Origin: Candidatus Latescibacterota bacterium
GTDB lineage: Bacteria > Latescibacterota > UBA2968 > UBA8231
Length of the DNA: 64,000 bases
Direction: 5' to 3'
Assembly (NCBI GenBank): GCA_964291625.2
Contig: OZ220089.1
Span: 352,001-416,000, forward strand
The notes under the pieces were generated by a model. The model had not been told where the DNA came from and searched no databases. It was given only the letters and a program-made list of their open reading frames with translations. Within the stretch, counting starts at the first letter, position 1. Every line of letters starts with the position of its first letter. Position numbers and translations under genes: made by a program. Shown one piece after another: positions 46,182 to 56,021 of this stretch.

Positions 46182-47401
46182 GCGTCGACCCATCGGGCTC
46201 GACGGGCCCGGCTCCCGTGGGACTGTGGAGCCGGGCCTTCGTCGTTCTCTGCGGCCTCTCCTTCCTCGGCGGCTTCGCCACCGCCCCGTACCACTCCCTG
46301 CTGCCCGTCTACGTCGACGCCGACCTCGGGCGCCTGGCCGTGTTCACGGGATACCTCCGGGCCGTCGCCCTCGCCCTGGGCGGCATCTTCGCCATCGTCG
46401 CGGGACGCCTCTGCGATCTCCTGGGCCTCAAGGTCACCCTCCTCCTCGGGCTGGCCGGGAGCGCCGTGACGGGCCTCGTCTTCCACACCGGCGATGTCCT
46501 CCTCCTGACCCTGCTCACCCTCGTGGCGGGAGCCGCCGGCGGCCCCCTGAGCACCTCGGGCCAGAGCTACCTCATCGCCGCCGCCGGTCCGGTGCGCCTG
46601 GGTCTGGGCGGCGCCCTCTACTTCCTCAGCAGCACCCTCGGGCAGTCCGCCGGGAACCTCTGCACCGGGCTGGTGAAAGAGGACTGGAGCTTCGGCGAGA
46701 TCGGCACGGCCATGGCCCTGCTCTCGGCGGCCGTGGTCCTGGCGGGGATCCTGCTGCTGCCGTCCACCCCCGTCCGTGAAGCACCCCAGGTGGCGCCCCG
46801 GCTGGCCCTCTGGTCGTCGTACCGGCCCCTGCTGGGGCAGCGGAACGTGCACCTCCTCGTCGGGCTGCGGCTGACGATCACCGGCTTCTGGGGCATGGCC
46901 AGCCTGGCCCTGCCCCTGCTCGTCTACCGCGCCAGCGGCTCGGCGGCGACGGCCGCCTTCTACGGGTCGGTGAGCCTCGCCGTGGCCGCTGCCGGGCAGT
47001 TGCTCACCGGCCTGCTGCGGGACCGCTTCGGACGCACGGGGCCCCTGCTCCTGTCCGCCGCCGGCATCGTCGCCAGCGCCGTGGGCCTGGCCTTCGGCAC
47101 CGGGTCGGTCCTGGCCCTCTTCCTCCTCGGCACGGCCCTGTCGACCACGGCCTGGGCGGTCTCGGTCCTGGTGCCCGGTCTCATCGACGAGGTGGCCGCC
47201 GCCGGGGAGAGGAACCGGCTCGTCGGCCTCGGTCACATGGTCTGGAGCGGCGCCATGGTCACCGGCAGTGTCGCCGGGGGCTGGCTGGTCGAGGTCGCCC
47301 CTCATCTCCCCTTCGCCGTCGGCGCCGTCTCCGCGACAGTGGGGGCCCTGTGCCTGTGGCGGCTCTGCACGCGCCTCGACGGCAACCGGGCGGCAGGTTA
47401 G
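46178..47401 (+). CDS. MFS transporter
   Basis: GTGA coupling at 46178. About 12 TM segments, with GRLCDLLGLK and GLLRDRFGR motif-A-like loops. Confidence 0.85.
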   Translation: MSVDPSGSTGPAPVGLWSRAFVVLCGLSFLGGFATAPYHSLLPVYVDADLGRLAVFTGYLRAVALALGGIFAIVAGRLCDLLGLKVTLLLGLAGSAVTGLVFHTGDVLLLTLLTLVAGAAGGPLSTSGQSYLIAAAGPVRLGLGGALYFLSSTLGQSAGNLCTGLVKEDWSFGEIGTAMALLSAAVVLAGILLLPSTPVREAPQVAPRLALWSSYRPLLGQRNVHLLVGLRLTITGFWGMASLALPLLVYRASGSAATAAFYGSVSLAVAAAGQLLTGLLRDRFGRTGPLLLSAAGIVASAVGLAFGTGSVLALFLLGTALSTTAWAVSVLVPGLIDEVAAAGERNRLVGLGHMVWSGAMVTGSVAGGWLVEVAPHLPFAVGAVSATVGALCLWRLCTRLDGNRAAG

Positions 47402-47403
47402 CG

Positions 47404-48543
47404 ATGCAACGCCTCAAGCTGCTGCTGGCCTCGGTGGCCCACTTCTGCGTCGACTCGTACGCCACCATGCTCGCGCCCCTGCTGCCCCTGGTGATGACGC
47501 GCCTCGGTCTCGGCATCGCCGGCGCCGGGTTCCTCGGCACCCTGGTCACCCTGTGCAGCATCACCCAGCCCCTGCTCGGCCTGTGGGGCGACCGCATGCA
47601 CCGGCGCCGGCTGGTCCTCGGCGGGATGGCCATGACCGCGGTCTTCACCCCCCTCATGGGGATCGCCCCGAGCTACTGGGTCCTCGTGGGGATCCTCTGG
47701 CTCGGCGGTCTCGGGGTCGCCGCCTTCCACCCCCAGGCGTTCTCCCTGGCCGGCGAGCTGTGCGGGCCCCGCCGCGGCTTCGGCCTGGCCCTGTTCATCT
47801 TCGGCGGCACCCTCGGCCTCGGGGTGACGCCTCTCTGGGTGCGGCCCTTCGCCGAGGCCGCGGGGCTGGAGTGGCTGCCCCTGGTGGGCCTGCCCGGACT
47901 GCTCGTGCTGGTCCTGGTCTGGCGCTTCCTGCCCCTCGACAACCCCCAGGCCGCCGCCCGCGAGGCCGGCGAGAGGGCCCCCGCCGGCGACGGTGTCCGC
48001 CGGGGCCTGATGCTGATCACCGTCGTCGTCATCCTGCGCTCGGTCACCGGCCTCTGCTTCGGGATCTTCCTCGCCGTCCTGGCCCGGGAGCGGGGCCTGT
48101 CGCCCGAGGAGGGAGACCGCTGGCTGGCGATCTACAACATCTCCGGCGTCATCGGCGCCCTGGCCTTCGGCTACCTCTCCGACCGCATCAGCAAGCGCCC
48201 TCTGGTCTGCTTCTCCCTGCTGGCGGCCAGCCCGGCCCTCTACTTCTTCCTGCAGGCCGACGGTCTCACCGCCTACCTGCTGCTGGGCGTGGGCGGCGGC
48301 TTCCTCCTGGCCTCGAACTCGATCCTGGTCGCCCTCGCCCAGGAGCTGGCTCCCGGGCGCTCGGGGCTGGCCTCCAGCCTCCCCCTCGGCTTCAGCTGGG
48401 GCGTCGCCAGCCTCGCCCTCGGCCCCTCCGGCTACATCGCCGACCGCGTCGGACTCGCCCCGACCCTCGAGTGGCTCGCCCTGCTGCCGCTGGTGACCGC
48501 CGTGGCCGCCCTCTTTCTTCCGGACCCCTCCCGGCGGAGGTGA
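47404..48543 (+). CDS. MFS transporter (Fsr-like)
   Basis: HFCVDSY...PLLP, QPLLG.WGDR, GLGVAAFHP, GYLSDRISKR and AQELAP. Confidence 0.9.
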   Translation: MQRLKLLLASVAHFCVDSYATMLAPLLPLVMTRLGLGIAGAGFLGTLVTLCSITQPLLGLWGDRMHRRRLVLGGMAMTAVFTPLMGIAPSYWVLVGILWLGGLGVAAFHPQAFSLAGELCGPRRGFGLALFIFGGTLGLGVTPLWVRPFAEAAGLEWLPLVGLPGLLVLVLVWRFLPLDNPQAAAREAGERAPAGDGVRRGLMLITVVVILRSVTGLCFGIFLAVLARERGLSPEEGDRWLAIYNISGVIGALAFGYLSDRISKRPLVCFSLLAASPALYFFLQADGLTAYLLLGVGGGFLLASNSILVALAQELAPGRSGLASSLPLGFSWGVASLALGPSGYIADRVGLAPTLEWLALLPLVTAVAALFLPDPSRRR

Positions 48544-49214
48544 CCCCCGCGAACCCCAGCGAAGGAGACCGCCCCTTGTACGAACTCTGGAAACCGATCT
48601 ACACGGCCCTGGCCGCCGACGTCATGGACGCCCTCGGGTACCGGGAGCAGGCCCTCGACCACGGCGTCCGTCCCGCCCACCCCGCCAGCGCCTTCGCCGG
48701 CCCGGCGGTCACCCTCGACGCCCACCGCCACGAGGAGCCCCACGACGATCCCTACGGCCTGATCTTCGAGGCCTACGACCGGGTGCGCCCCGGGGACGTG
48801 ATCCTGGTGGCCACCAACGGCGAGGTGCGCTCCGGCCTGTGGGGGGAGCTGTTGTCCACGGCCGCCGCCGCCCGCGGGGTCAACGCCGTCGTCACCGACG
48901 GTCTGGTGCGCGACGTCCGCCAGATGAACGACATGGGCTTTCACTGCTTCTGCCGCGGCTTCTCCCCCCTGGACTCGGCGGGGCGGGTCCTGCCCACCGG
49001 GGTGCAGGTGCCGGTCACCTGCGGCGGCGTCCGGGTCGAGCCCGGGGACTTCGTCCTCGCCGACTACGAGGGGGTGGTCGTCATCCCCGCGGCGATCCGC
49101 GACGAGGTGCGGGCCCGGTGCCTGGAGAAGCTGGAGGGGGAGAACCGCGTGCGCGACGAGCTCGCCTCGGGGCGCTCGCCGCGGGAGGTCTTCGACGAGT
49201 ACGGGATCCTCTGA
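48540..49214 (+). CDS. RraA family / 4-hydroxy-4-methyl-2-oxoglutarate aldolase-like protein
   Basis: GTGA coupling. WGELLSTAA..RG....VTDGLVRD, VPVTCGGVRVEPGDFVLADYEGVVVIP. Confidence 0.9.
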   Translation: MTPANPSEGDRPLYELWKPIYTALAADVMDALGYREQALDHGVRPAHPASAFAGPAVTLDAHRHEEPHDDPYGLIFEAYDRVRPGDVILVATNGEVRSGLWGELLSTAAAARGVNAVVTDGLVRDVRQMNDMGFHCFCRGFSPLDSAGRVLPTGVQVPVTCGGVRVEPGDFVLADYEGVVVIPAAIRDEVRARCLEKLEGENRVRDELASGRSPREVFDEYGIL

Positions 49215-49225
49215 GCCCGCCGGGT

Positions 49226-50395
49226 TCAGCTACCGGCGGCCAGGGCCGCCTCGAAGTCGGCCCACAGGTCCTCGGCCGCCTCGATGCCGACGGCGACGCG
49301 CACCAGGCCGTCGCCGATCCCCAGGGCCCGCCGCCGCCCGGGGCTCTGGCCGGCGTGGGAGCTGACCGCGGGCCGGCTCACCAGGGTCTCCACCCCGCCG
49401 AGGCTGGGGGCGTCCACGGCCAGCTCGAGGCGGTCGATCAACCGTCGGGCGGCCTCGGCGTCGCCGAGGTCGAAGCTGAGCACGCCGCCGCAGCCGGCGA
49501 ACCAGCGCCGGGCGCGCTCGTGTCCGGGATGGCCGGCCAGCCCGGGGTAGTGGACGGCGGCCACGGCCCGGTGCGCCTCCAGCCGCCGCGCCAGGAAGAG
49601 GGCGTTGTGGTTCTGCTGCTCCACCCGCAGAGCCAGGGTCTTCAGCCCCCGCTGCAGCAGGAAGCAGGCGTGGGGATCGAGGACGCCGCCGAGGTGGTTC
49701 ATCTTGTGGGTGATCCGCCGGACCCGCTCCGCCGTGGAGACGACGGCGCCGGCGACGATGTCGGAGTGGCCGTTGAGGTACTTCGTGGCGCTGTGCAGCT
49801 CGACGTCGAAGCCGGCCTCCAGGGGCCGGTAGTTGACCGGCGAGGCGAAGGTGTTGTCGATGACGGAGACGATCCCCCGCTCCCGGCAGAAGGCGGTCAC
49901 CGCCTCCAGGTCGGCCACCTCCAGGAGGGGGTTCGTCAGGCTCTCCACCAGGAAGGCGCGGGTGTTCGGCCGCGCCAGGTTCGCCCACTGCTCGGGGTCG
50001 TCTCCTCCGACGAAGTCGATGTCGATCCCGAGGGCCGGCGCGTCCTCCGTGAGGAAGCTGAGGGTGCCGCCGTAGAGGCAGTCCTGCGCCAGCAGGTGGG
50101 GCCGCTCCCGCCCCGGCTCCGATTCCAGCAGGGTCAGCAGGGTGGTGGTGATCGCCGCCATGCCCGAGCCCGCCACCACCGCCGCCTCGCCGCCGCAGAT
50201 CCCGGCCAGCCGCGCCGCCAGGTCCCGGTGGTTCGGGGAGTTGCTCAGCCGCAGGTAGCGGATGTCGTCGTACGAGGCGGTCTCCTCCGCCTCCCAGGTG
50301 GCGCTCTGGAAGACGGGCTGCACCACCGACCCCTCGACCCGGTCCAGGCCCCCGTGGATCAGGCGGGTGCGCAGGTCGCGGCGGCGGCCGCTCAC
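49226..50395 (-). CDS. PLP-dependent Cys/Met metabolism enzyme (cystathionine gamma-synthase/lyase family)
   Basis: GTG 50395 overlaps the upstream stop. PVFQSAT, Y.R.SN.P, SGMAAI, ESLTNP, DNTFASP, HSATKYLNGHSD (PLP Lys) and SLGGVETL. Confidence 0.92.
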   Translation of the reverse strand: MSGRRRDLRTRLIHGGLDRVEGSVVQPVFQSATWEAEETASYDDIRYLRLSNSPNHRDLAARLAGICGGEAAVVAGSGMAAITTTLLTLLESEPGRERPHLLAQDCLYGGTLSFLTEDAPALGIDIDFVGGDDPEQWANLARPNTRAFLVESLTNPLLEVADLEAVTAFCRERGIVSVIDNTFASPVNYRPLEAGFDVELHSATKYLNGHSDIVAGAVVSTAERVRRITHKMNHLGGVLDPHACFLLQRGLKTLALRVEQQNHNALFLARRLEAHRAVAAVHYPGLAGHPGHERARRWFAGCGGVLSFDLGDAEAARRLIDRLELAVDAPSLGGVETLVSRPAVSSHAGQSPGRRRALGIGDGLVRVAVGIEAAEDLWADFEAALAAGS

Positions 50396-52524
50396 AGGAC
50401 GTGCTCGCGCAGCAGGCGCTCGTACACGGCGACGAAGTCGCCGCGGCCGTTGGAGCGGTTGTAGAAGTAGCAGAAGGGGTTCGGGTTGAGCTCCAGGATC
50501 CACCAGGCGCCGGCGTCGTCGCGGATCAGGTCGATGGCGTAGAAGCCGAGGTCGACGACACCGGCCACCTCCCCGGCCAGCCGGCGCAGCGGCGCCAGCA
50601 CCTCCTCGTCGTCGACCCGCTCGGCGCGGCCGCCGGGGTGGTGCAGCGGGTTGAGGTCCTCCCCGCCCGTCCCGTCGCTGGCCTTAGCATAGGCCAGCAG
50701 CACCTCGCCCCGGGCGGCCACGGCCCGGTACTCCTGGCCGCTGACGAAGGACTGCACGAGGACGAGGTTGTCGAGGGGCCCGGCGTTCTCGAAGAGCGAC
50801 TGGAGCCGCCGGGAGACGCCCCCGGCGTCCGTCTCCAGGTAGACCCCCTGGGAGCCCGAGCCCCGGGCCTTCTTGACGAGCACGGGCCAGCTCATCTCCG
50901 CCTCCACCTCGGCGACCATGTCCTCGACCGTCCGGTGCCTCTTGTAGCGGTTGAAGCGGTCGTCGGCGTAGGGGTTGAAGAACTGCATCGTGAAGGGCAC
51001 GGGCAGGCCGGCGCCGGCGAAGAGCTCGTGCTGGTAGCCCTTGTCCTCGGCCACGCGCGCCGCCGCGTAGTCGTTGAAGGGGTGCTTGTTGCGCAGGAAC
51101 AGGAACGGGCGGCGGCCCCCGTCGAGGCGCATGACGTTGCCGTCCGCCGAGACCGGCCGGATCCGCAGGCCCAGGCGCTCGCAGGCGAGGGCCAGGCACT
51201 CGAGGCTCTCGCGGGCCACCTCCTCGCCGATGCCCTCCGCCTCCAAGGGCAGGCCGAAGTGCTCCCGGGCCCGGGCCGCCATGTGCAGGGACCCGGTGAC
51301 GCAGACCCTTCCGGACTCGCCCGCCTCGCCCAGGGCCCTCTCGAAGGCCTTGCCGCAGGAGGGCTCGATCTCGGCGGCCACCTCCGGCGCGGCGGAAGAC
51401 GCCCGTGCGGCCAGGTCCCCCGCCGGCATCGCCTTGGCGTGTCCCGACTCGGTGAGCACGAACCGGCCCGCCACCGGCTTCAGTGCCCCGAGGACCGCGT
51501 CGGCGTCGTGGTCCTCGTTGACGCCGACGACGATGATCCAGTCCCGGCCGCCGCGGCCGAGGTCCCCGGCCAGGGCGGCGGCCGCGCCCGGGTTGTGGGC
51601 GCCGTCGAGGAGCACGCGCGGGTGCTCGCGGGCGCGCTCGAAGCGTCCCGGCCACTGGTGGGAGGCCAGCACCTGCCGGGCCCGTTCCGCTTGCAGGTCG
51701 GGGCAGACCCGGGCGGCGGCGGCCACGGCGAGGCGGGCGTTGTCCACCCAGGTCCCGGGCCTCGAGTCGGAGGCCTCGGGCGCCGCCAGGTAGGGGACCG
51801 CCTCACCCTCCCCGAAGCGCAGTCCCCGGTCGCCGCAGAGAACCAGGGGAATGCCCTTCTCCCGCGCCCGGCGGCGGACGAGGTCCAGGACCTCGGGATC
51901 CTGCGCGGCCGTGGTGAACAGGGGCCGGCCGGGGCGCGCCACGGGCAGCTTCTCGCCGGCGATGGAGACCGGGTCGTGTCCGAGGACGGCACAGTGGTCG
52001 AGGGCGACCGGCGTCAGGATAGCGAGGTCGTGGTCCCAGGCGTTGGTGGCGTCGTGGCGGCCCCCGAGACCGACCTCGAAGACGGCTGCTTCCACCCCCT
52101 CGGAGGCGAAGAGGTGGGCGGCGAGAACGGTGAGCGCCTCGAAGCGCGAGAACCCGCCCAGTCCCTCTCCCTCGAAGCCGCGGGTGGCGTCGTGCAGAAA
52201 GGTGATCCCCTCGGCCCAGCGGTCCTTGTCGAGGAGGCCGCCGTCGACCTGGATGCGCTCGCGCTGGCTGTGCAGATGGGGGGAGGTGTAGAGCCCGGTG
52301 CGGCGGCCGGAGGCCTGGAGCAGGGCCGCCAGCAGGCTGGCCACCGTGCCCTTGCCGTTGGTGCCGGCGACGATGACGCTGCCGAAGCGCTGCTGCGGGT
52401 CGCCGCACCGCCGCAGCAGGGCGCGCACCCGGGGCAGGTAGTGCTCGAGAGGCCCCTCCGGCGGCCGTCCCCGCTCCCAGTCGGGCAGGGTGTCCAGAAA
52501 CCTCTTCGACCTGGAGTAGTCCAC
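50392..52524 (-). CDS. folC: Folylpolyglutamate synthase/dihydrofolate synthase fused to a C-terminal ATP-grasp ligase domain
   Basis: VAGTNGKGT, YTSPHL, EVGLGGRHDATN, WPGRFE, LDGAHNP and VTGSLH, followed by EDK...LPVP, WPVLVKKARGSGSQGV, VQSFVSGQEYR, AIDLI and ILELNPNP. Confidence 0.88.
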   Translation of the reverse strand: MDYSRSKRFLDTLPDWERGRPPEGPLEHYLPRVRALLRRCGDPQQRFGSVIVAGTNGKGTVASLLAALLQASGRRTGLYTSPHLHSQRERIQVDGGLLDKDRWAEGITFLHDATRGFEGEGLGGFSRFEALTVLAAHLFASEGVEAAVFEVGLGGRHDATNAWDHDLAILTPVALDHCAVLGHDPVSIAGEKLPVARPGRPLFTTAAQDPEVLDLVRRRAREKGIPLVLCGDRGLRFGEGEAVPYLAAPEASDSRPGTWVDNARLAVAAAARVCPDLQAERARQVLASHQWPGRFERAREHPRVLLDGAHNPGAAAALAGDLGRGGRDWIIVVGVNEDHDADAVLGALKPVAGRFVLTESGHAKAMPAGDLAARASSAAPEVAAEIEPSCGKAFERALGEAGESGRVCVTGSLHMAARAREHFGLPLEAEGIGEEVARESLECLALACERLGLRIRPVSADGNVMRLDGGRRPFLFLRNKHPFNDYAAARVAEDKGYQHELFAGAGLPVPFTMQFFNPYADDRFNRYKRHRTVEDMVAEVEAEMSWPVLVKKARGSGSQGVYLETDAGGVSRRLQSLFENAGPLDNLVLVQSFVSGQEYRAVAARGEVLLAYAKASDGTGGEDLNPLHHPGGRAERVDDEEVLAPLRRLAGEVAGVVDLGFYAIDLIRDDAGAWWILELNPNPFCYFYNRSNGRGDFVAVYERLLREHVL

Positions 52525-52566: not shown

Positions 52567-53624
52567 TCAGCCGCCGCGGGTGTGCATCTCGCGGTGAGGG
52601 TCCTGGCGCAGCTCGTCGATCTGGTAGAGGGCCCCCCGCACCGGCGCGCGGACGCGCTTCTCGGCGCCGCGGTCCCGCCGCCGGGACCAGCCCTCGGCGA
52701 TCCGTTGCGACAGCTCTTCGGCCGGGATCCCGCGGCGCACGGGCTCGCGCAGGTCGATGCCGTCGCGGGCGTAGAGGCACAGGTACCAGAGCCCGTCCGC
52801 CGTCAGCCGGCTGCGGTCGCAGCTGCCGCAGAAGGGGCTCGTCGTCGAGGAGATGATGCCGAAGCGCTCCCCCGACGGCAGGCGGAACCTCTCCGCCGGG
52901 GCGTTGCCCCTCCCCCCTCCGCCTCGGCCGGTCCGTAGTGGCCCTGCAGCCGCGCGAGGATCTCCTCCCGGGAGTAGACCCGCTCCGGCTGCCACAGGGT
53001 GGCGCCGCCCACGTCCATGTACTCGATGAAGCGGACCTCGGCGCCGACGCGGCGGCCGAAGGCGACGAGGTCGACGATCTCGTCGTCGTTGAAGTCGCGC
53101 ATGACCACAGTGTTGATCTTGAGGGACTCGAAGCCGGCCTCGGCGGAGGCCTCGATGCCGGCGAGCACGTCGTCGAGAGCGGCCCTCCGGGTGAGGGTCT
53201 CGAAGCGGGCCGGCTTGAGGGAGTCGAGGCTGACCGTGACCCGTCGCAGCCCGGCCTCGCGCAGGGCCCGCGCGTGCCGGGCCAGCTGGGTGGCGTTGGT
53301 GGTGAGGGCGATATCGTCCAGACCGCGCTCGTCGAGGCCGGCGATCAGGTCGGGGAGGCGGGCCCGCAGCAGCGGCTCGCCGCCGGTGAGGCGGATCCGC
53401 CGCACGCCGTTGGCGGCGAAGGCGTCCACCAGGACCAGGATCTCGTCGAAGGTCAGGATGTCCGCCTTGGGCAGCCAGGCGTAGTCCTCTTCGGGCATGC
53501 AGTAGGCGCAGCGCAGGTCGCAGCGGTCGATGACCGAGATCCGCAACGACTGCAGGGGCCGGCCGTAGACGTCGGCCGCGGCCTCGCGCACGGTGCCCGG
53601 AAGGCTGGGAGAGGGGGCGGTCAC
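52567..53624 (-). pseudogene. moaA: GTP 3',8-cyclase MoaA with a single frameshift in a G6 run (possibly a sequencing error)
   Basis: N-part (CDLRCAYCMP, RLTGGEP, TTNA, RFIEYMDVG) lies in ORF 52803-53663. C-part (PFCGSCDRSRLTADG..LCL...MHTRGG) lies in the frame of ORF 52567-53667. The switch is at C6 52912-52917. Confidence 0.88.
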
Positions 53625-53764
53625 AAGGCTGCAGAACATACGGGCGGGGCCTGGGGCCCGCAATCACCCGAAGGTTGGAAGTCCAATCCCATCAGTCAGT
53701 TACGCTCACTCGGCAGGCGCCCGCCGCCTTGATCTTCCGTCGTCTCCGGGGTAACTTGGCCCCC

Positions 53765-54691
53765 ATGCCGAGCCCGGAGACCGAAGGCCTGCAGCGCCAG
53801 CTGTCTGACCGCGGATACATCGCCGGCGACGACATCTGCCTCTCCCTGCACCTGGCGCGGGAGCTGGGCAAGCCGCTGCTGGTGGAGGGACCCGCGGGGG
53901 TGGGCAAGACCGAGATCGCCAAGGTCCTGGCCGACCTCCTCGGCACCGACCTGATCCGCCTCCAGTGCTACGAGGGCCTCGACACGAGCACCGCCCTCTA
54001 CGAGTGGAACTACCAGCGCCAGCTGCTGCAGATCCGCATGGAGGAGCAGGGCGAGCGCTCCCTCGAGCAGCGCGAGGCCCACATCTTCTCCGAGCCCTTC
54101 CTCCTCAAGCGCCCCCTGCTGCAGGCGATCACCCACCACCGGCCCCCGGTGCTGCTCATCGACGAGCTGGACCGGGCCGACGAGGAGTTCGAGAGCTTCC
54201 TCCTCGAGCTGCTCTCCGACTGGCAGATCTCGATCCCGGAGCTGGGCACGATCCGGGCCACCCACGTGCCCCACGTGGTGGTCACCGGCAACCGCACCCG
54301 CGAGCTCTCCGACGCCCTGCGCCGGCGCTGCTTCTACCTGTGGATCGACTACCCCGACTTCGACAAGGAGCTGGCCATCGTGCGCGCCCGCGTCGACGGC
54401 ATCGACGCCGAGCTGGCCGGGCAGATCTGCCGCTTCATGGCCGGGGCCCGCCGCCAGCAGCTGGAGAAGCCCCCCGGCGTGGCCGAGACCCTCGACTGGG
54501 CCCGGGCCCTCGTGGCCCTGCACCGCCGCCACCTCGACGCCGCCACCATCGAGGAAACCCTCGGCCTCGTCTTCAAGGACTACCACGACGTGACCCACGT
54601 GAAGCAGTCCCTCGCCGAGTTCCTCGACAGCGTGGGGGTCCGCCCGGCCGCACCTCCCGGGGGCGCGGCCCCCGATGCCGCCGGCTCCTGA
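53765..54691 (+). CDS. coxD: MoxR-family AAA+ ATPase (CoxD-like)
   Basis: EGPAGVGKTE, RLQCYEGLD...ALYEWNY, LLIDELDRADEEFE, LSDALRRRC and KPPGVAETLDW. Confidence 0.9.
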   Translation: MPSPETEGLQRQLSDRGYIAGDDICLSLHLARELGKPLLVEGPAGVGKTEIAKVLADLLGTDLIRLQCYEGLDTSTALYEWNYQRQLLQIRMEEQGERSLEQREAHIFSEPFLLKRPLLQAITHHRPPVLLIDELDRADEEFESFLLELLSDWQISIPELGTIRATHVPHVVVTGNRTRELSDALRRRCFYLWIDYPDFDKELAIVRARVDGIDAELAGQICRFMAGARRQQLEKPPGVAETLDWARALVALHRRHLDAATIEETLGLVFKDYHDVTHVKQSLAEFLDSVGVRPAAPPGGAAPDAAGS

Positions 54692-56021
54692 GCCGCCGCC
54701 CCGGGGCTCCTTCCCCGACGACCTCGCCCTCCACGGCGCCCTGAGCGCCAACGTCGTCGGCTTCTGCCGGCACCTGAGGGACCGCGGCCTCGGGCTGGGT
54801 CCGGCCGAGGCCGCCGACGCCCTCGCCGCCCTGGGACTCGTCGACGTGGGCCGCGAGAGCCGGTTCCGCCTCGCCCTGCGCACCTGCCTGGCCAAGAGCG
54901 TCAAGGAGCAGCAGCTCTTCGACGACTGCTTCGACCGCTACTGGCGGGTCTGGGACCGGGCCGGGGAGCTGAATCGGCCGGCGCCCGACCCCGAGGCCGG
55001 GAGCCCGGACCGGGACCGCGCGCAGCCGGTGCAGATGAGCCTGAGGGAGTGGCTGAACGCCGGCGAGGGCGGGGAGGCGGAGGAGCAGGAGGAGACGGCG
55101 GGCTACAGCGCCGGCGAGGTGGTCACCCACCGCGACTTCGCCGGCCTGCGGCCCGACGAGCTGGAGGAGATGGGCCGCGTCGTGGAGGAGCTGGCCCGGG
55201 CCCTGGCGCGGCGGCTCAGCCGCCGCTACCGGCAGCTCGGCGGCCGGGGGCGCCTCGACCTGCGCCGCACCCTGCGGGCCAACCTGCGCCGCGGCGGCGA
55301 GCTGGTCGACCTGGCCTTCCGCTCGCGGCGGCCGCAGAAGCTCAAGCTGGTGGTCCTGTGCGACGTGAGCCGCTCCATGGACCTCTACAGCCGCTTCCTG
55401 CTGCAGTTCCTCTACGCCTTCGCCGCCGCCTACCGGCGCCTGGAGGTCTTCGGCTTCAGCACCAGCCTGCGGCGCCTGACGCCGGCCCTGCGCGAGGGCG
55501 AGTGGGACCGCGTCCTGCGGGGGTTGTCCCGGGAGATGCCGGAGTGGTCGGGCGGCACCCGCATCGGCGCCTGCTTCGCGCGCTTCGCCGAGGACTGGTC
55601 CGAGAGCCTGGTGGACCGGCGCACGGCCGTCATCGTCCTCAGCGACGGCTGGGACACGGGCGAGGCCGAGCTGCTGTCGTCGTCCCTGTCCCGCATCCGC
55701 CGCCGCGCCTTCGCCGTGCTGTGGCTGAATCCGCTGATGGGGAGCCCGGGCTTCCGCCCCGAGACGGCGGGTCTGCTGGCGGCCCTGCCCCACCTGGACC
55801 TCCTCGCCCCGGCCCACAACGCCGCGGCCCTGCGGGACCTCGCCCGCGGCTTGGGCCGGCTGGAGCGCGGGGGGGCCAGGCGCGGGCCCTGGGCGGGCCG
55901 ATCCCCGGAGGAGGAGGCGGATCCCGATCCCCCGCCCCCGGTGCCGGACCCGGACGCCCCGAGCTCGGCGAGGAACCTGCGGGCCCTCGCCGAGGAGCGC
56001 GCTTCCCGAAAGAGGCTTTGA
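54675..56021 (+). CDS. coxE: VWA domain protein (CoxE-like)
   Basis: LDLRRTLR, LCDVSRSM (MIDAS), FGFSTSL, WSGGTRIG, LSDGWDTG, WLNPL and AHN. Confidence 0.9.
   Translation: MPPAPEPPPRGSFPDDLALHGALSANVVGFCRHLRDRGLGLGPAEAADALAALGLVDVGRESRFRLALRTCLAKSVKEQQLFDDCFDRYWRVWDRAGELNRPAPDPEAGSPDRDRAQPVQMSLREWLNAGEGGEAEEQEETAGYSAGEVVTHRDFAGLRPDELEEMGRVVEELARALARRLSRRYRQLGGRGRLDLRRTLRANLRRGGELVDLAFRSRRPQKLKLVVLCDVSRSMDLYSRFLLQFLYAFAAAYRRLEVFGFSTSLRRLTPALREGEWDRVLRGLSREMPEWSGGTRIGACFARFAEDWSESLVDRRTAVIVLSDGWDTGEAELLSSSLSRIRRRAFAVLWLNPLMGSPGFRPETAGLLAALPHLDLLAPAHNAAALRDLARGLGRLERGGARRGPWAGRSPEEEADPDPPPPVPDPDAPSSARNLRALAEERASRKRL

Follow-up and report, generated by a model that had tools for sequence, protein, structure and literature searches.

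What does a second amino acid ligase do when it is fused to the only FolC of a cell? The question is raised by a gene on the reverse strand of a 64,000-nucleotide stretch of DNA (the window) from a Candidatus Latescibacterota bacterium (assembly GCA_964291625.2, contig OZ220089.1, positions 352,001 to 416,000). In this gene, FolC, the enzyme that in the textbook view makes the gamma-polyglutamate tails of folates on its own, is followed in the same chain by an ATP-grasp ligase. A sole FolC fused to a RimK-type ligase suggests an unusual folate tail in three uncultured families.

The fusion was observed well beyond the window. A protein search over 5.8 billion proteins returned at least 120 full-length homologues among the matches listed, with 53-91% identity, 92-100% coverage and lengths of 667-768 aa. 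In a scan of species-representative genomes, 180 stretches encoded a relative, and 76 loci were kept. Both halves lie in a single frame in all 76, with no stop from the FolC start to the ATP-grasp end, and the full-length fusion is present in 74 of them. The start of the relatives aligned with that of the window gene (N-terminus MDY...), and the homologue alignment showed that the junction is conserved too (GSLH..ARARE...LP.E.EGI.E.V..ESL.C). Among the matches were 22 short close homologues, which we regard as fragments because they come mostly from contigs of about 1-5 kb and several retain Mur_ligase_C.

These results bear on the possibility that two neighbouring genes were merged by a lost stop or a frameshift, as an assembly or annotation artefact. 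Indel errors do occur close by, since the upstream moaA carries a 1-nt homopolymer deletion in the same assembly. Against this stand the continuous frame in 76/76 independent loci, about 80 sampled genomes and at least 120 listed protein clusters, together with the conserved junction. The short matches that appear to stand alone come from small contigs (about 1-5 kb) or from the ends of contigs; in one genome (G100), a 490-aa frame is truncated by the end of a 16739-base contig. A lost stop or misassembly is thus ruled out by the one-frame fusion across loci and sampled genomes, and we assign the artefact a negligible probability. The coordinates, domain sizes and neighbours given in the original prediction (moaA upstream, a Cys/Met enzyme downstream) were all correct, and its reading of a complete FolC running in frame into an ATP-grasp domain was borne out by the 710-aa open reading frame (ORF). 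It had allowed that relatives might encode two separate genes; none of the 76 loci is split in this way. The features of the locus are listed in Table 1.

Table 1. Features of the fusion locus and its surroundings, in window positions (PLP, pyridoxal phosphate; MFS, major facilitator superfamily; pLDDT, predicted local distance difference test).
Feature	Position	Strand	Basis or remark
Whole fused gene	50392..52524	(-)	GTG start 52524-52522, 710 codons plus TGA stop (ORF list, translation)
FolC module, residues 1-427	51244..52524	(-)	TIGR01499, Mur_ligase_C, alignment to 1w78 and 1fgs
Predicted flexible linker, residues 428-435 (8 residues)	51220..51243	(-)	pLDDT <50 in full-length model
RimK/LysX-like ATP-grasp ligase module, residues 436-710	50395..51219	(-)	rimK_fam below cut-off, model, structure matches
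Downstream Cys/Met-metabolism PLP enzyme	49226..50395	(-)	PF01053, 372.6 bits
Upstream moaA (GTP 3',8-cyclase), two frames	52567..53663	(-)	Radical_SAM in one, Mob_synth_C in the other
MoxR-type AAA ATPase (338 aa) and overlapping VWA/CoxE-like protein (448 aa)	53675-56021	(+)	Divergent from moaA
MFS-transporter-like and RraA-family-like genes	47350-49214	(+)	Convergent to PLP gene; labels by eye from ORF translations

The N-terminal half was assigned to FolC by the NCBIfam model TIGR01499, which matches residues 30-421 over profile positions 1-398 of 400, with a score of 280.7 bits above the cut-off of 162.65. Pfam Mur_ligase_C matches residues 293-412 with 50.6 bits, and the relatives carry FOL3_C, a Pfam family more recent than the Pfam copy used on the window protein. 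Over its full length, this half can be aligned with E. coli FolC (1w78, 34-412), L. casei folylpolyglutamate synthase (1fgs) and M. tuberculosis FolC (2vor). The motifs include a P-loop GTNGKG (54-59), SPHL (81-84), EVGLGGRxDATN (150-161), DH (176-177), K192, PGRFE, DGAHNP (307-312) and GSL (411-413). Their columns are invariant in 19 diverse homologues and match the same motifs of 1w78. The roles of individual residues, such as that of K192 as the carbamylated-Lys site, are presumably those of the E. coli and L. casei structures. Alongside known FolC enzymes (1w78, 1fgs, 2vor), the N-terminal 427 residues are a full-length member of the family with all Mur-ligase/FolC motifs; the protein differs by its C-terminal ATP-grasp ligase of about 280 aa, which is not known from any characterised FolC, and the fused half scores lower on the folC model than the unfused genes of the phylum.

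The original prediction had left open whether a stand-alone folC exists elsewhere in this genome, and none was found. The fusion is the only folC over the cut-off in a genome estimated to be 95% complete, and the genome search detected no CofE-type FolC2. The same genome encodes folP (298 bits), folK (134 bits) and folA (152 bits). Since these three genes are present and no other folC is, the cell needs a dihydrofolate synthase/folylpolyglutamate synthase for which the fusion is the only candidate. The N-terminal half is accordingly best explained, from sequence and gene content, as the housekeeping enzyme of this type.

The C-terminal half is related to the RimK family by likeness and lies below the family thresholds. 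The NCBIfam model rimK_fam (TIGR00768) matches residues 483-683 with 54.4 bits, under its cut-off of 143.4, and Pfam Dala_Dala_lig_C matches residues 524-599; weaker partial matches were obtained with the cyanophycin synthetase, LysX and D-Ala-D-Ala ligase models of NCBIfam. When this half was folded alone from a 17-sequence alignment, the model contained all three ATP-grasp subdomains (pLDDT 90.5; predicted template modelling score, pTM, 0.88). A structure scan of 48,161 PDB representatives (VIA Z), independent of Foldseek, placed ArgX 3vpb first (Z 21.7, 245 aligned), with LysX/ArgX 5k2m at 21.1 and RimK 4iwx at 19.6, these matches spanning 240-245 aligned residues. D-Ala-D-Ala ligases (about 18), GshF 3ln7 (15.7) and CphA2 7ta5 (15.2) followed at lower Z. 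Foldseek listed RimK 5zct first (E 2e-13). The original prediction had compared this half with the modules of cyanophycin synthetase and GshF, a comparison that has to be revised, as the module is nearer to RimK/LysX/ArgX (Z 19.6-21.7 vs about 15). The protein also differs from GshF in its N-terminal half, which is FolC, with no glutamate-cysteine ligase domain. A role as glutathione synthetase was considered unlikely: neither gshA (PF04262) nor gshB (TIGR01380) was found in the genome, although GCS2-type ligases were not searched for.

Invariant residues of the ATP-grasp half include DK (494-495), K551, Q591, E598-x-R600, NPLH (625-628), D665 and E678-x-N680. In a profile alignment to RimK, DdlB and LysX, K551 corresponds to the PxxxK lysine, Q591/E598/R600 to the QxYxxGxExR hinge, D665 and E678-x-N680 to the Mg ligands, and the invariant NPLH...G to the RimK loop sNLHRGG. 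In 67 of the 76 loci, conservation is also higher here than in the FolC half (mean identity to the window protein 58.4% vs 55.0%). Because the ATP/Mg motifs are invariant and conservation exceeds that of the FolC half, the ATP-grasp half has the appearance of a strongly constrained, active ligase, and the inactive domain that the original prediction had considered finds no sign in these motifs. In summary of the family assignment, the fusion protein is a FolC member whose second half is RimK-type by likeness and falls under the cut-offs of RimK, MptN, CofF and CphA. The database names of its homologues are inconsistent, including "dihydrofolate synthase/folylpolyglutamate synthase", "hypothetical protein" and "cyanophycin synthetase".

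The distribution of the fusion was followed in a 121-genome sample of the phylum of the window (GTDB family handles f1-f4 and others; the window's genome included). A profile of the ATP-grasp half matched 37/40 genomes of f1, 29/29 of f2 and 13/13 of f3, with one match per genome, always in the folC frame. This amounts to 79/82 genomes of f1-f3, or 80/83 when the window's genome is counted. The three f1 genomes without a match also have no complete folC match. Outside these families, the profile matched 0/2 genomes of f4 and 1/36 of the remaining families, where the lone match reached 42 bits over profile positions 63-253 of 280 (about two-thirds). With the folC model, 78 of the 83 f1-f3 genomes encoded folC in an open frame of at least 692 aa (count from the result table) and, except for G107, no further folC over the cut-off. 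The other five comprise G100 (contig end, as above), G113 (split over two contigs), G062 (contig edge) and G056 and G116 (weak matches only). Other families, including f4 genome G108 of the same class, encode an ordinary folC in frames of 425-510 aa. The ATP-grasp module is thus confined almost entirely to f1-f3, where it never leaves the folC frame, and the fusion is fixed in these three families.

In the case of G107, which belongs to the genus of the window, a canonical-scoring folC (365 bits, G107:C361:45-1232) was observed besides the fusion, in a 647-aa frame on a short contig; it could be a second folC or stem from contamination, which is estimated at 5%. Public labels of these metagenome-assembled genomes vary between Latescibacterota, Gemmatimonadota/Gemmatimonadaceae and Handelsmanbacteria. 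The Atlas cluster of the fusion protein has 113 members, with Latescibacterota the commonest.

The FolC half differs in sequence from its unfused counterparts. On TIGR01499, fused halves score 250-300 bits vs 320-411 bits for the unfused folC genes of the phylum. The unfused FolC of sister family f4 (L095, G108:C196, 939-2273) is only 33% identical to the fused FolC half of the window (51234-52524), a value no higher than the similarity of the fused half to E. coli FolC. The pattern would fit either fast divergence after the fusion or replacement of the ancestral gene by a foreign paralogue.

Relatives of the ATP-grasp module were also found outside the fusion. A profile search of 1.84 billion cluster representatives gave 1845 matches at E<=1e-3, 410 at E<=1e-10 and 123 at E<=1e-30. 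Next in rank, after the fusion cluster and its fragments, came proteins of about 266-322 aa that stand alone; the highest-scoring ones (P0126-P0137) reached 190-248 bits with 30-34% identity. They share with the module the motifs ESLxC, NKxPFN, DKxxQ, FNP, LLAYEK, DLNPLH and NxNPxCxFYN..NGRxDF. None of these relatives exceeds any NCBIfam cut-off; their best matches are partial, to rimK_fam, LysX, MptN, CofF and Ddl, and those to the MptN and CofF models reach 25-38 bits vs cut-offs of 350 and 300. The stand-alone family is rich in Lys, Asn and Ile, and some members carry His/Gln-rich C-terminal tails. Metagenome scans (alignment A5, P0135) and tblastn against plasmids and phages gave no matches to it.

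A possible function follows from the chemistry of the two enzyme types. The carboxylate activated by FolC is the gamma-carboxyl of the terminal Glu. An ATP-grasp ligase converts a carboxylate into an acyl-phosphate and then couples it to an amine, and RimK adds alpha-linked Glu onto a C-terminal Glu. In the fusion, the FolC module would add the first Glu onto dihydropteroate and then gamma-linked Glu residues. The ATP-grasp module would accept the glutamate-terminated folate tail from the adjacent FolC module, phosphorylate its terminal carboxylate, most likely the alpha-carboxyl left free by FolC, and ligate one or more amino acids, most likely L-Glu. The resulting folate would carry a tail that is either capped or of mixed gamma/alpha linkage. 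We infer this mixed-linkage or capped product from domain identity and analogy, and likewise the substrate of the ATP-grasp module (the folate tail), the type of linkage and the amino acid added. That the ATP-grasp half adds an alpha-linked Glu or another capping residue to the Glu-terminated folate of the FolC half is, in our judgement, an evenly balanced proposition.

The proposed logic, in which an ATP-grasp enzyme decorates a Glu-bearing cofactor tail made by another enzyme, is that of MptN, CofF and MyfB, which act on tetrahydrosarcinapterin, F420 and methylofuran, respectively. According to excerpts of PMC8141765, MptN attaches alpha-linked Glu to tetrahydromethanopterin (H4MPT) and MyfB lengthens the Glu chain of methylofuran. 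The CofF model is named coenzyme gamma-F420-2:alpha-L-glutamate ligase, and MptN is likewise named as a cofactor alpha-L-glutamate ligase. Here the cofactor would instead be folate, and the ligase is fused to the tail-building enzyme, an arrangement that the excerpts of PMC8141765 do not report for those systems. The folates of E. coli offer a second parallel, as alpha linkages have been reported in their distal tail (excerpt of PMC1971073, citing Ferone 1986). This alpha-linked folylpolyglutamate activity (Ferone et al. 1986, as given in the same excerpt) corresponds to the chemistry proposed for the fusion, but it was reported as an activity, and our literature search found no gene assigned to it. 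In the full-text literature, with subscription journals mostly outside coverage, neither a FolC-ATP-grasp fusion nor a gene responsible for the alpha-linked glutamylation of folate was found described.

Several observations weigh against a folate-tail function. The fusion shows a functional association of the ATP-grasp module with FolC and not a substrate. The module lies under the curated cut-off of every named family, and in the MptN (NF040720) and CofF (TIGR04443) searches the window protein is unlisted at E<=0.01. A related stand-alone family exists, and the ancestral role of the module may be unrelated to folate. The FolC half is strongly divergent and may have an altered specificity. In the full-length model (pTM 0.63), in which the linker is the sole segment with pLDDT <50, no fixed packing of the two halves was predicted, so there is no structural hint of channelling. 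Finally, the conserved neighbours, moaA and the Cys/Met PLP enzyme, are not folate genes, and the neighbours in a second synteny group are unrelated.

Some of these points are also those expected if the two halves were fused for co-expression only and the ATP-grasp substrate were something other than folate, such as a protein C-terminus, a carrier protein or a small peptide or metabolite. The closest structural matches belong to ligases that modify proteins (ArgX/LysX acting on LysW, RimK acting on S6), the stand-alone family has the same signature motifs, and no fixed inter-domain packing is predicted. The genome contains no true RimK, its best rimK_fam match being the fusion gene itself. On the other side, in about 80 sampled genomes, spread over three families, the two halves always occur fused and never apart, which would be unusual for unrelated activities. 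The S6 of the window's genome ends in ...GEGAA and not in Glu, the C-terminal residue that RimK presumably requires. RimK/LysX/ArgX are the best structural matches of the module and have the ATP/Mg motifs and the NxxH..G loop in common with it, whereas the module is fused instead of free-standing and its genome offers an S6 without a C-terminal Glu. This S6 (rpsF, L104 1495-2019 (+), G000:C1) is a 174-aa protein with a long Arg/Asp/Glu/Pro-rich C-terminal extension. Moreover, RimK-type ligases modify three other cofactor tails (model names; excerpts of PMC8141765), which makes folate the simplest substrate. We consider a fusion for co-expression alone rather unlikely, while leaving it a real share of the probability.

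A different reading of the same architecture is a polymerase resembling cyanophycin synthetase with reversed domain order, in which the two ligase modules would cooperate to make a non-ribosomal amino acid polymer or oligopeptide other than a folate, for example a Glu backbone with side-chain-linked residues. CphA1, built from N, ATP-grasp (G) and Mur-ligase (M) regions, also joins an ATP-grasp and a Mur-ligase-family ligase in one chain, and thus has the same two types of catalytic module. One homologue of the fusion was labelled "cyanophycin synthetase" by its source, Foldseek listed CphA1 7wae (E 5.6e-12), and clusters of the cyanophycin synthetase family appear as Atlas neighbours at 0.86-0.87, as leads only. 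On the CphA models themselves (TIGR02068 and NF010623), weak partial matches reached 42-43 bits vs cut-offs of 850-877. The ATP-grasp half falls on CphA profile positions 208-309 although it is C-terminal here, and the FolC half of a relative falls on positions 628-771, so the domain order is indeed opposite to that of CphA1, as originally proposed. Nothing in the fusion matches the part of the CphA profile N-terminal to the ATP-grasp region. The Mur-ligase half is FolC-specific (281 bits vs a cut-off of 163, compared with 42 vs 850 for CphA) and is the only FolC of a folate-synthesising genome, and the ATP-grasp half is structurally closer to ArgX/LysX/RimK than to CphA2, as described above. 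A true cyanophycin synthetase was not found elsewhere in the genome, where the best match (132 bits vs a cut-off of 850) was among the Mur-ligase genes. We regard such a polymerase as improbable. In the Atlas, two other clusters combining Mur-ligase and ATP-grasp domains were noted, a 742-aa "YheC/YheD + Mur_ligase_M" cluster of Bacillota with 53 members and a 712-aa "cyanophycin synthetase family" cluster of Pseudomonadota; with scores of just 0.87, both are leads and not relatives.

The ATP-grasp module could also act within the folate/pterin pathway at a step other than the finished gamma-Glu tail, such as p-aminobenzoyl-glutamate formation, part of the gamma-elongation or another pterin cofactor. 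Its fusion to FolC and the proximity of moaA, a pterin-cofactor gene that adjoins it in 46-47 of the 76 loci, would agree with this, and the divergent FolC half would fit a redistribution of tasks between the halves. However, no precedent was found for such ATP-grasp activities, the second synteny group lacks the linkage to moaA, and the ATP and carbamylated-Lys-site motifs of FolC are intact; we therefore hold a step of this kind to be of low probability. The original prediction had offered either folate or pterin tails of mixed linkage or with a capping amino acid, or a novel peptide or polymer. The first of these gains from the conserved single-chain fusion, the complete FolC and the intact catalytic motifs of the ATP-grasp domain. 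The novel peptide or polymer is weakened, because the Mur-ligase half is specifically a FolC, and the sole one of a folate-synthesising genome, and because the kin of the ATP-grasp half are RimK, LysX and ArgX.

The gene neighbourhood is partly conserved. In 43-47 of the 76 loci, down to about 55% identity, moaA, the fusion and the PLP enzyme follow one another as in the window, with the PLP enzyme directly downstream in 43 and both moaA pieces upstream in 46-47. Near the locus, MoxR/VWA genes were observed in 28/76 loci, RraA in 25/76 and an MFS gene in 19/76. A second synteny group lacks these neighbours; in L032, for instance, the fusion lies near a MiaB-like radical SAM protein, a PhyH dioxygenase, a metallophosphoesterase/TIM-barrel protein and an AAT-family protein. 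As no neighbour is a folate gene, the context adds little to the functional assignment. In the window, a candidate GTG start of the PLP gene (50395-50393) overlaps the TGA stop of the fusion (50394-50392) in a GTGA junction, an overlap compatible with translational coupling. The PLP enzyme scores under all NCBIfam equivalog cut-offs. Its recurrent coupling to the fusion would be in keeping with a connection to one-carbon and methionine metabolism.

On the upstream side, moaA ends with a stop at 52569-52567, and its end at 52567 is 42 nt upstream of the start of the fusion. The break in this gene was localised in a DNA alignment with L004, L005 and L007 to a 1-nt deletion within a G-run at about 52910/52911. 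The two pieces share one frame in relatives, for example in L004. The break may be either an assembly homopolymer error or a real pseudogene.

If a second, RimK-type ligase is fixed on the only FolC throughout a lineage, the one-carbon cofactor of these organisms probably differs chemically from the textbook form. Somewhat short of an even chance, in our estimate, is the broader claim that the whole lineage makes a distinct folate, with an alpha-linked extension or cap or a non-Glu residue, and that the fusion opens the first access, at the level of a gene, to a ligase that modifies folate tails. Were this true, effects on cofactor retention, on recognition by folate-dependent enzymes and on sensitivity to gamma-glutamyl hydrolases would be possible, and the tail decoration by ATP-grasp enzymes known for methanopterin, F420 and methylofuran would extend to folate. 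The alpha-glutamyl folate activity of E. coli from the 1986 work would then have candidates in the module and its stand-alone relatives, and the fusion would provide a concrete sequence with which that old report of alpha-linked folylpolyglutamates can be tested. If the substrate of the ATP-grasp half should prove unrelated to folate, the gene would still represent a clean, lineage-defining fusion that is inconsistently annotated.

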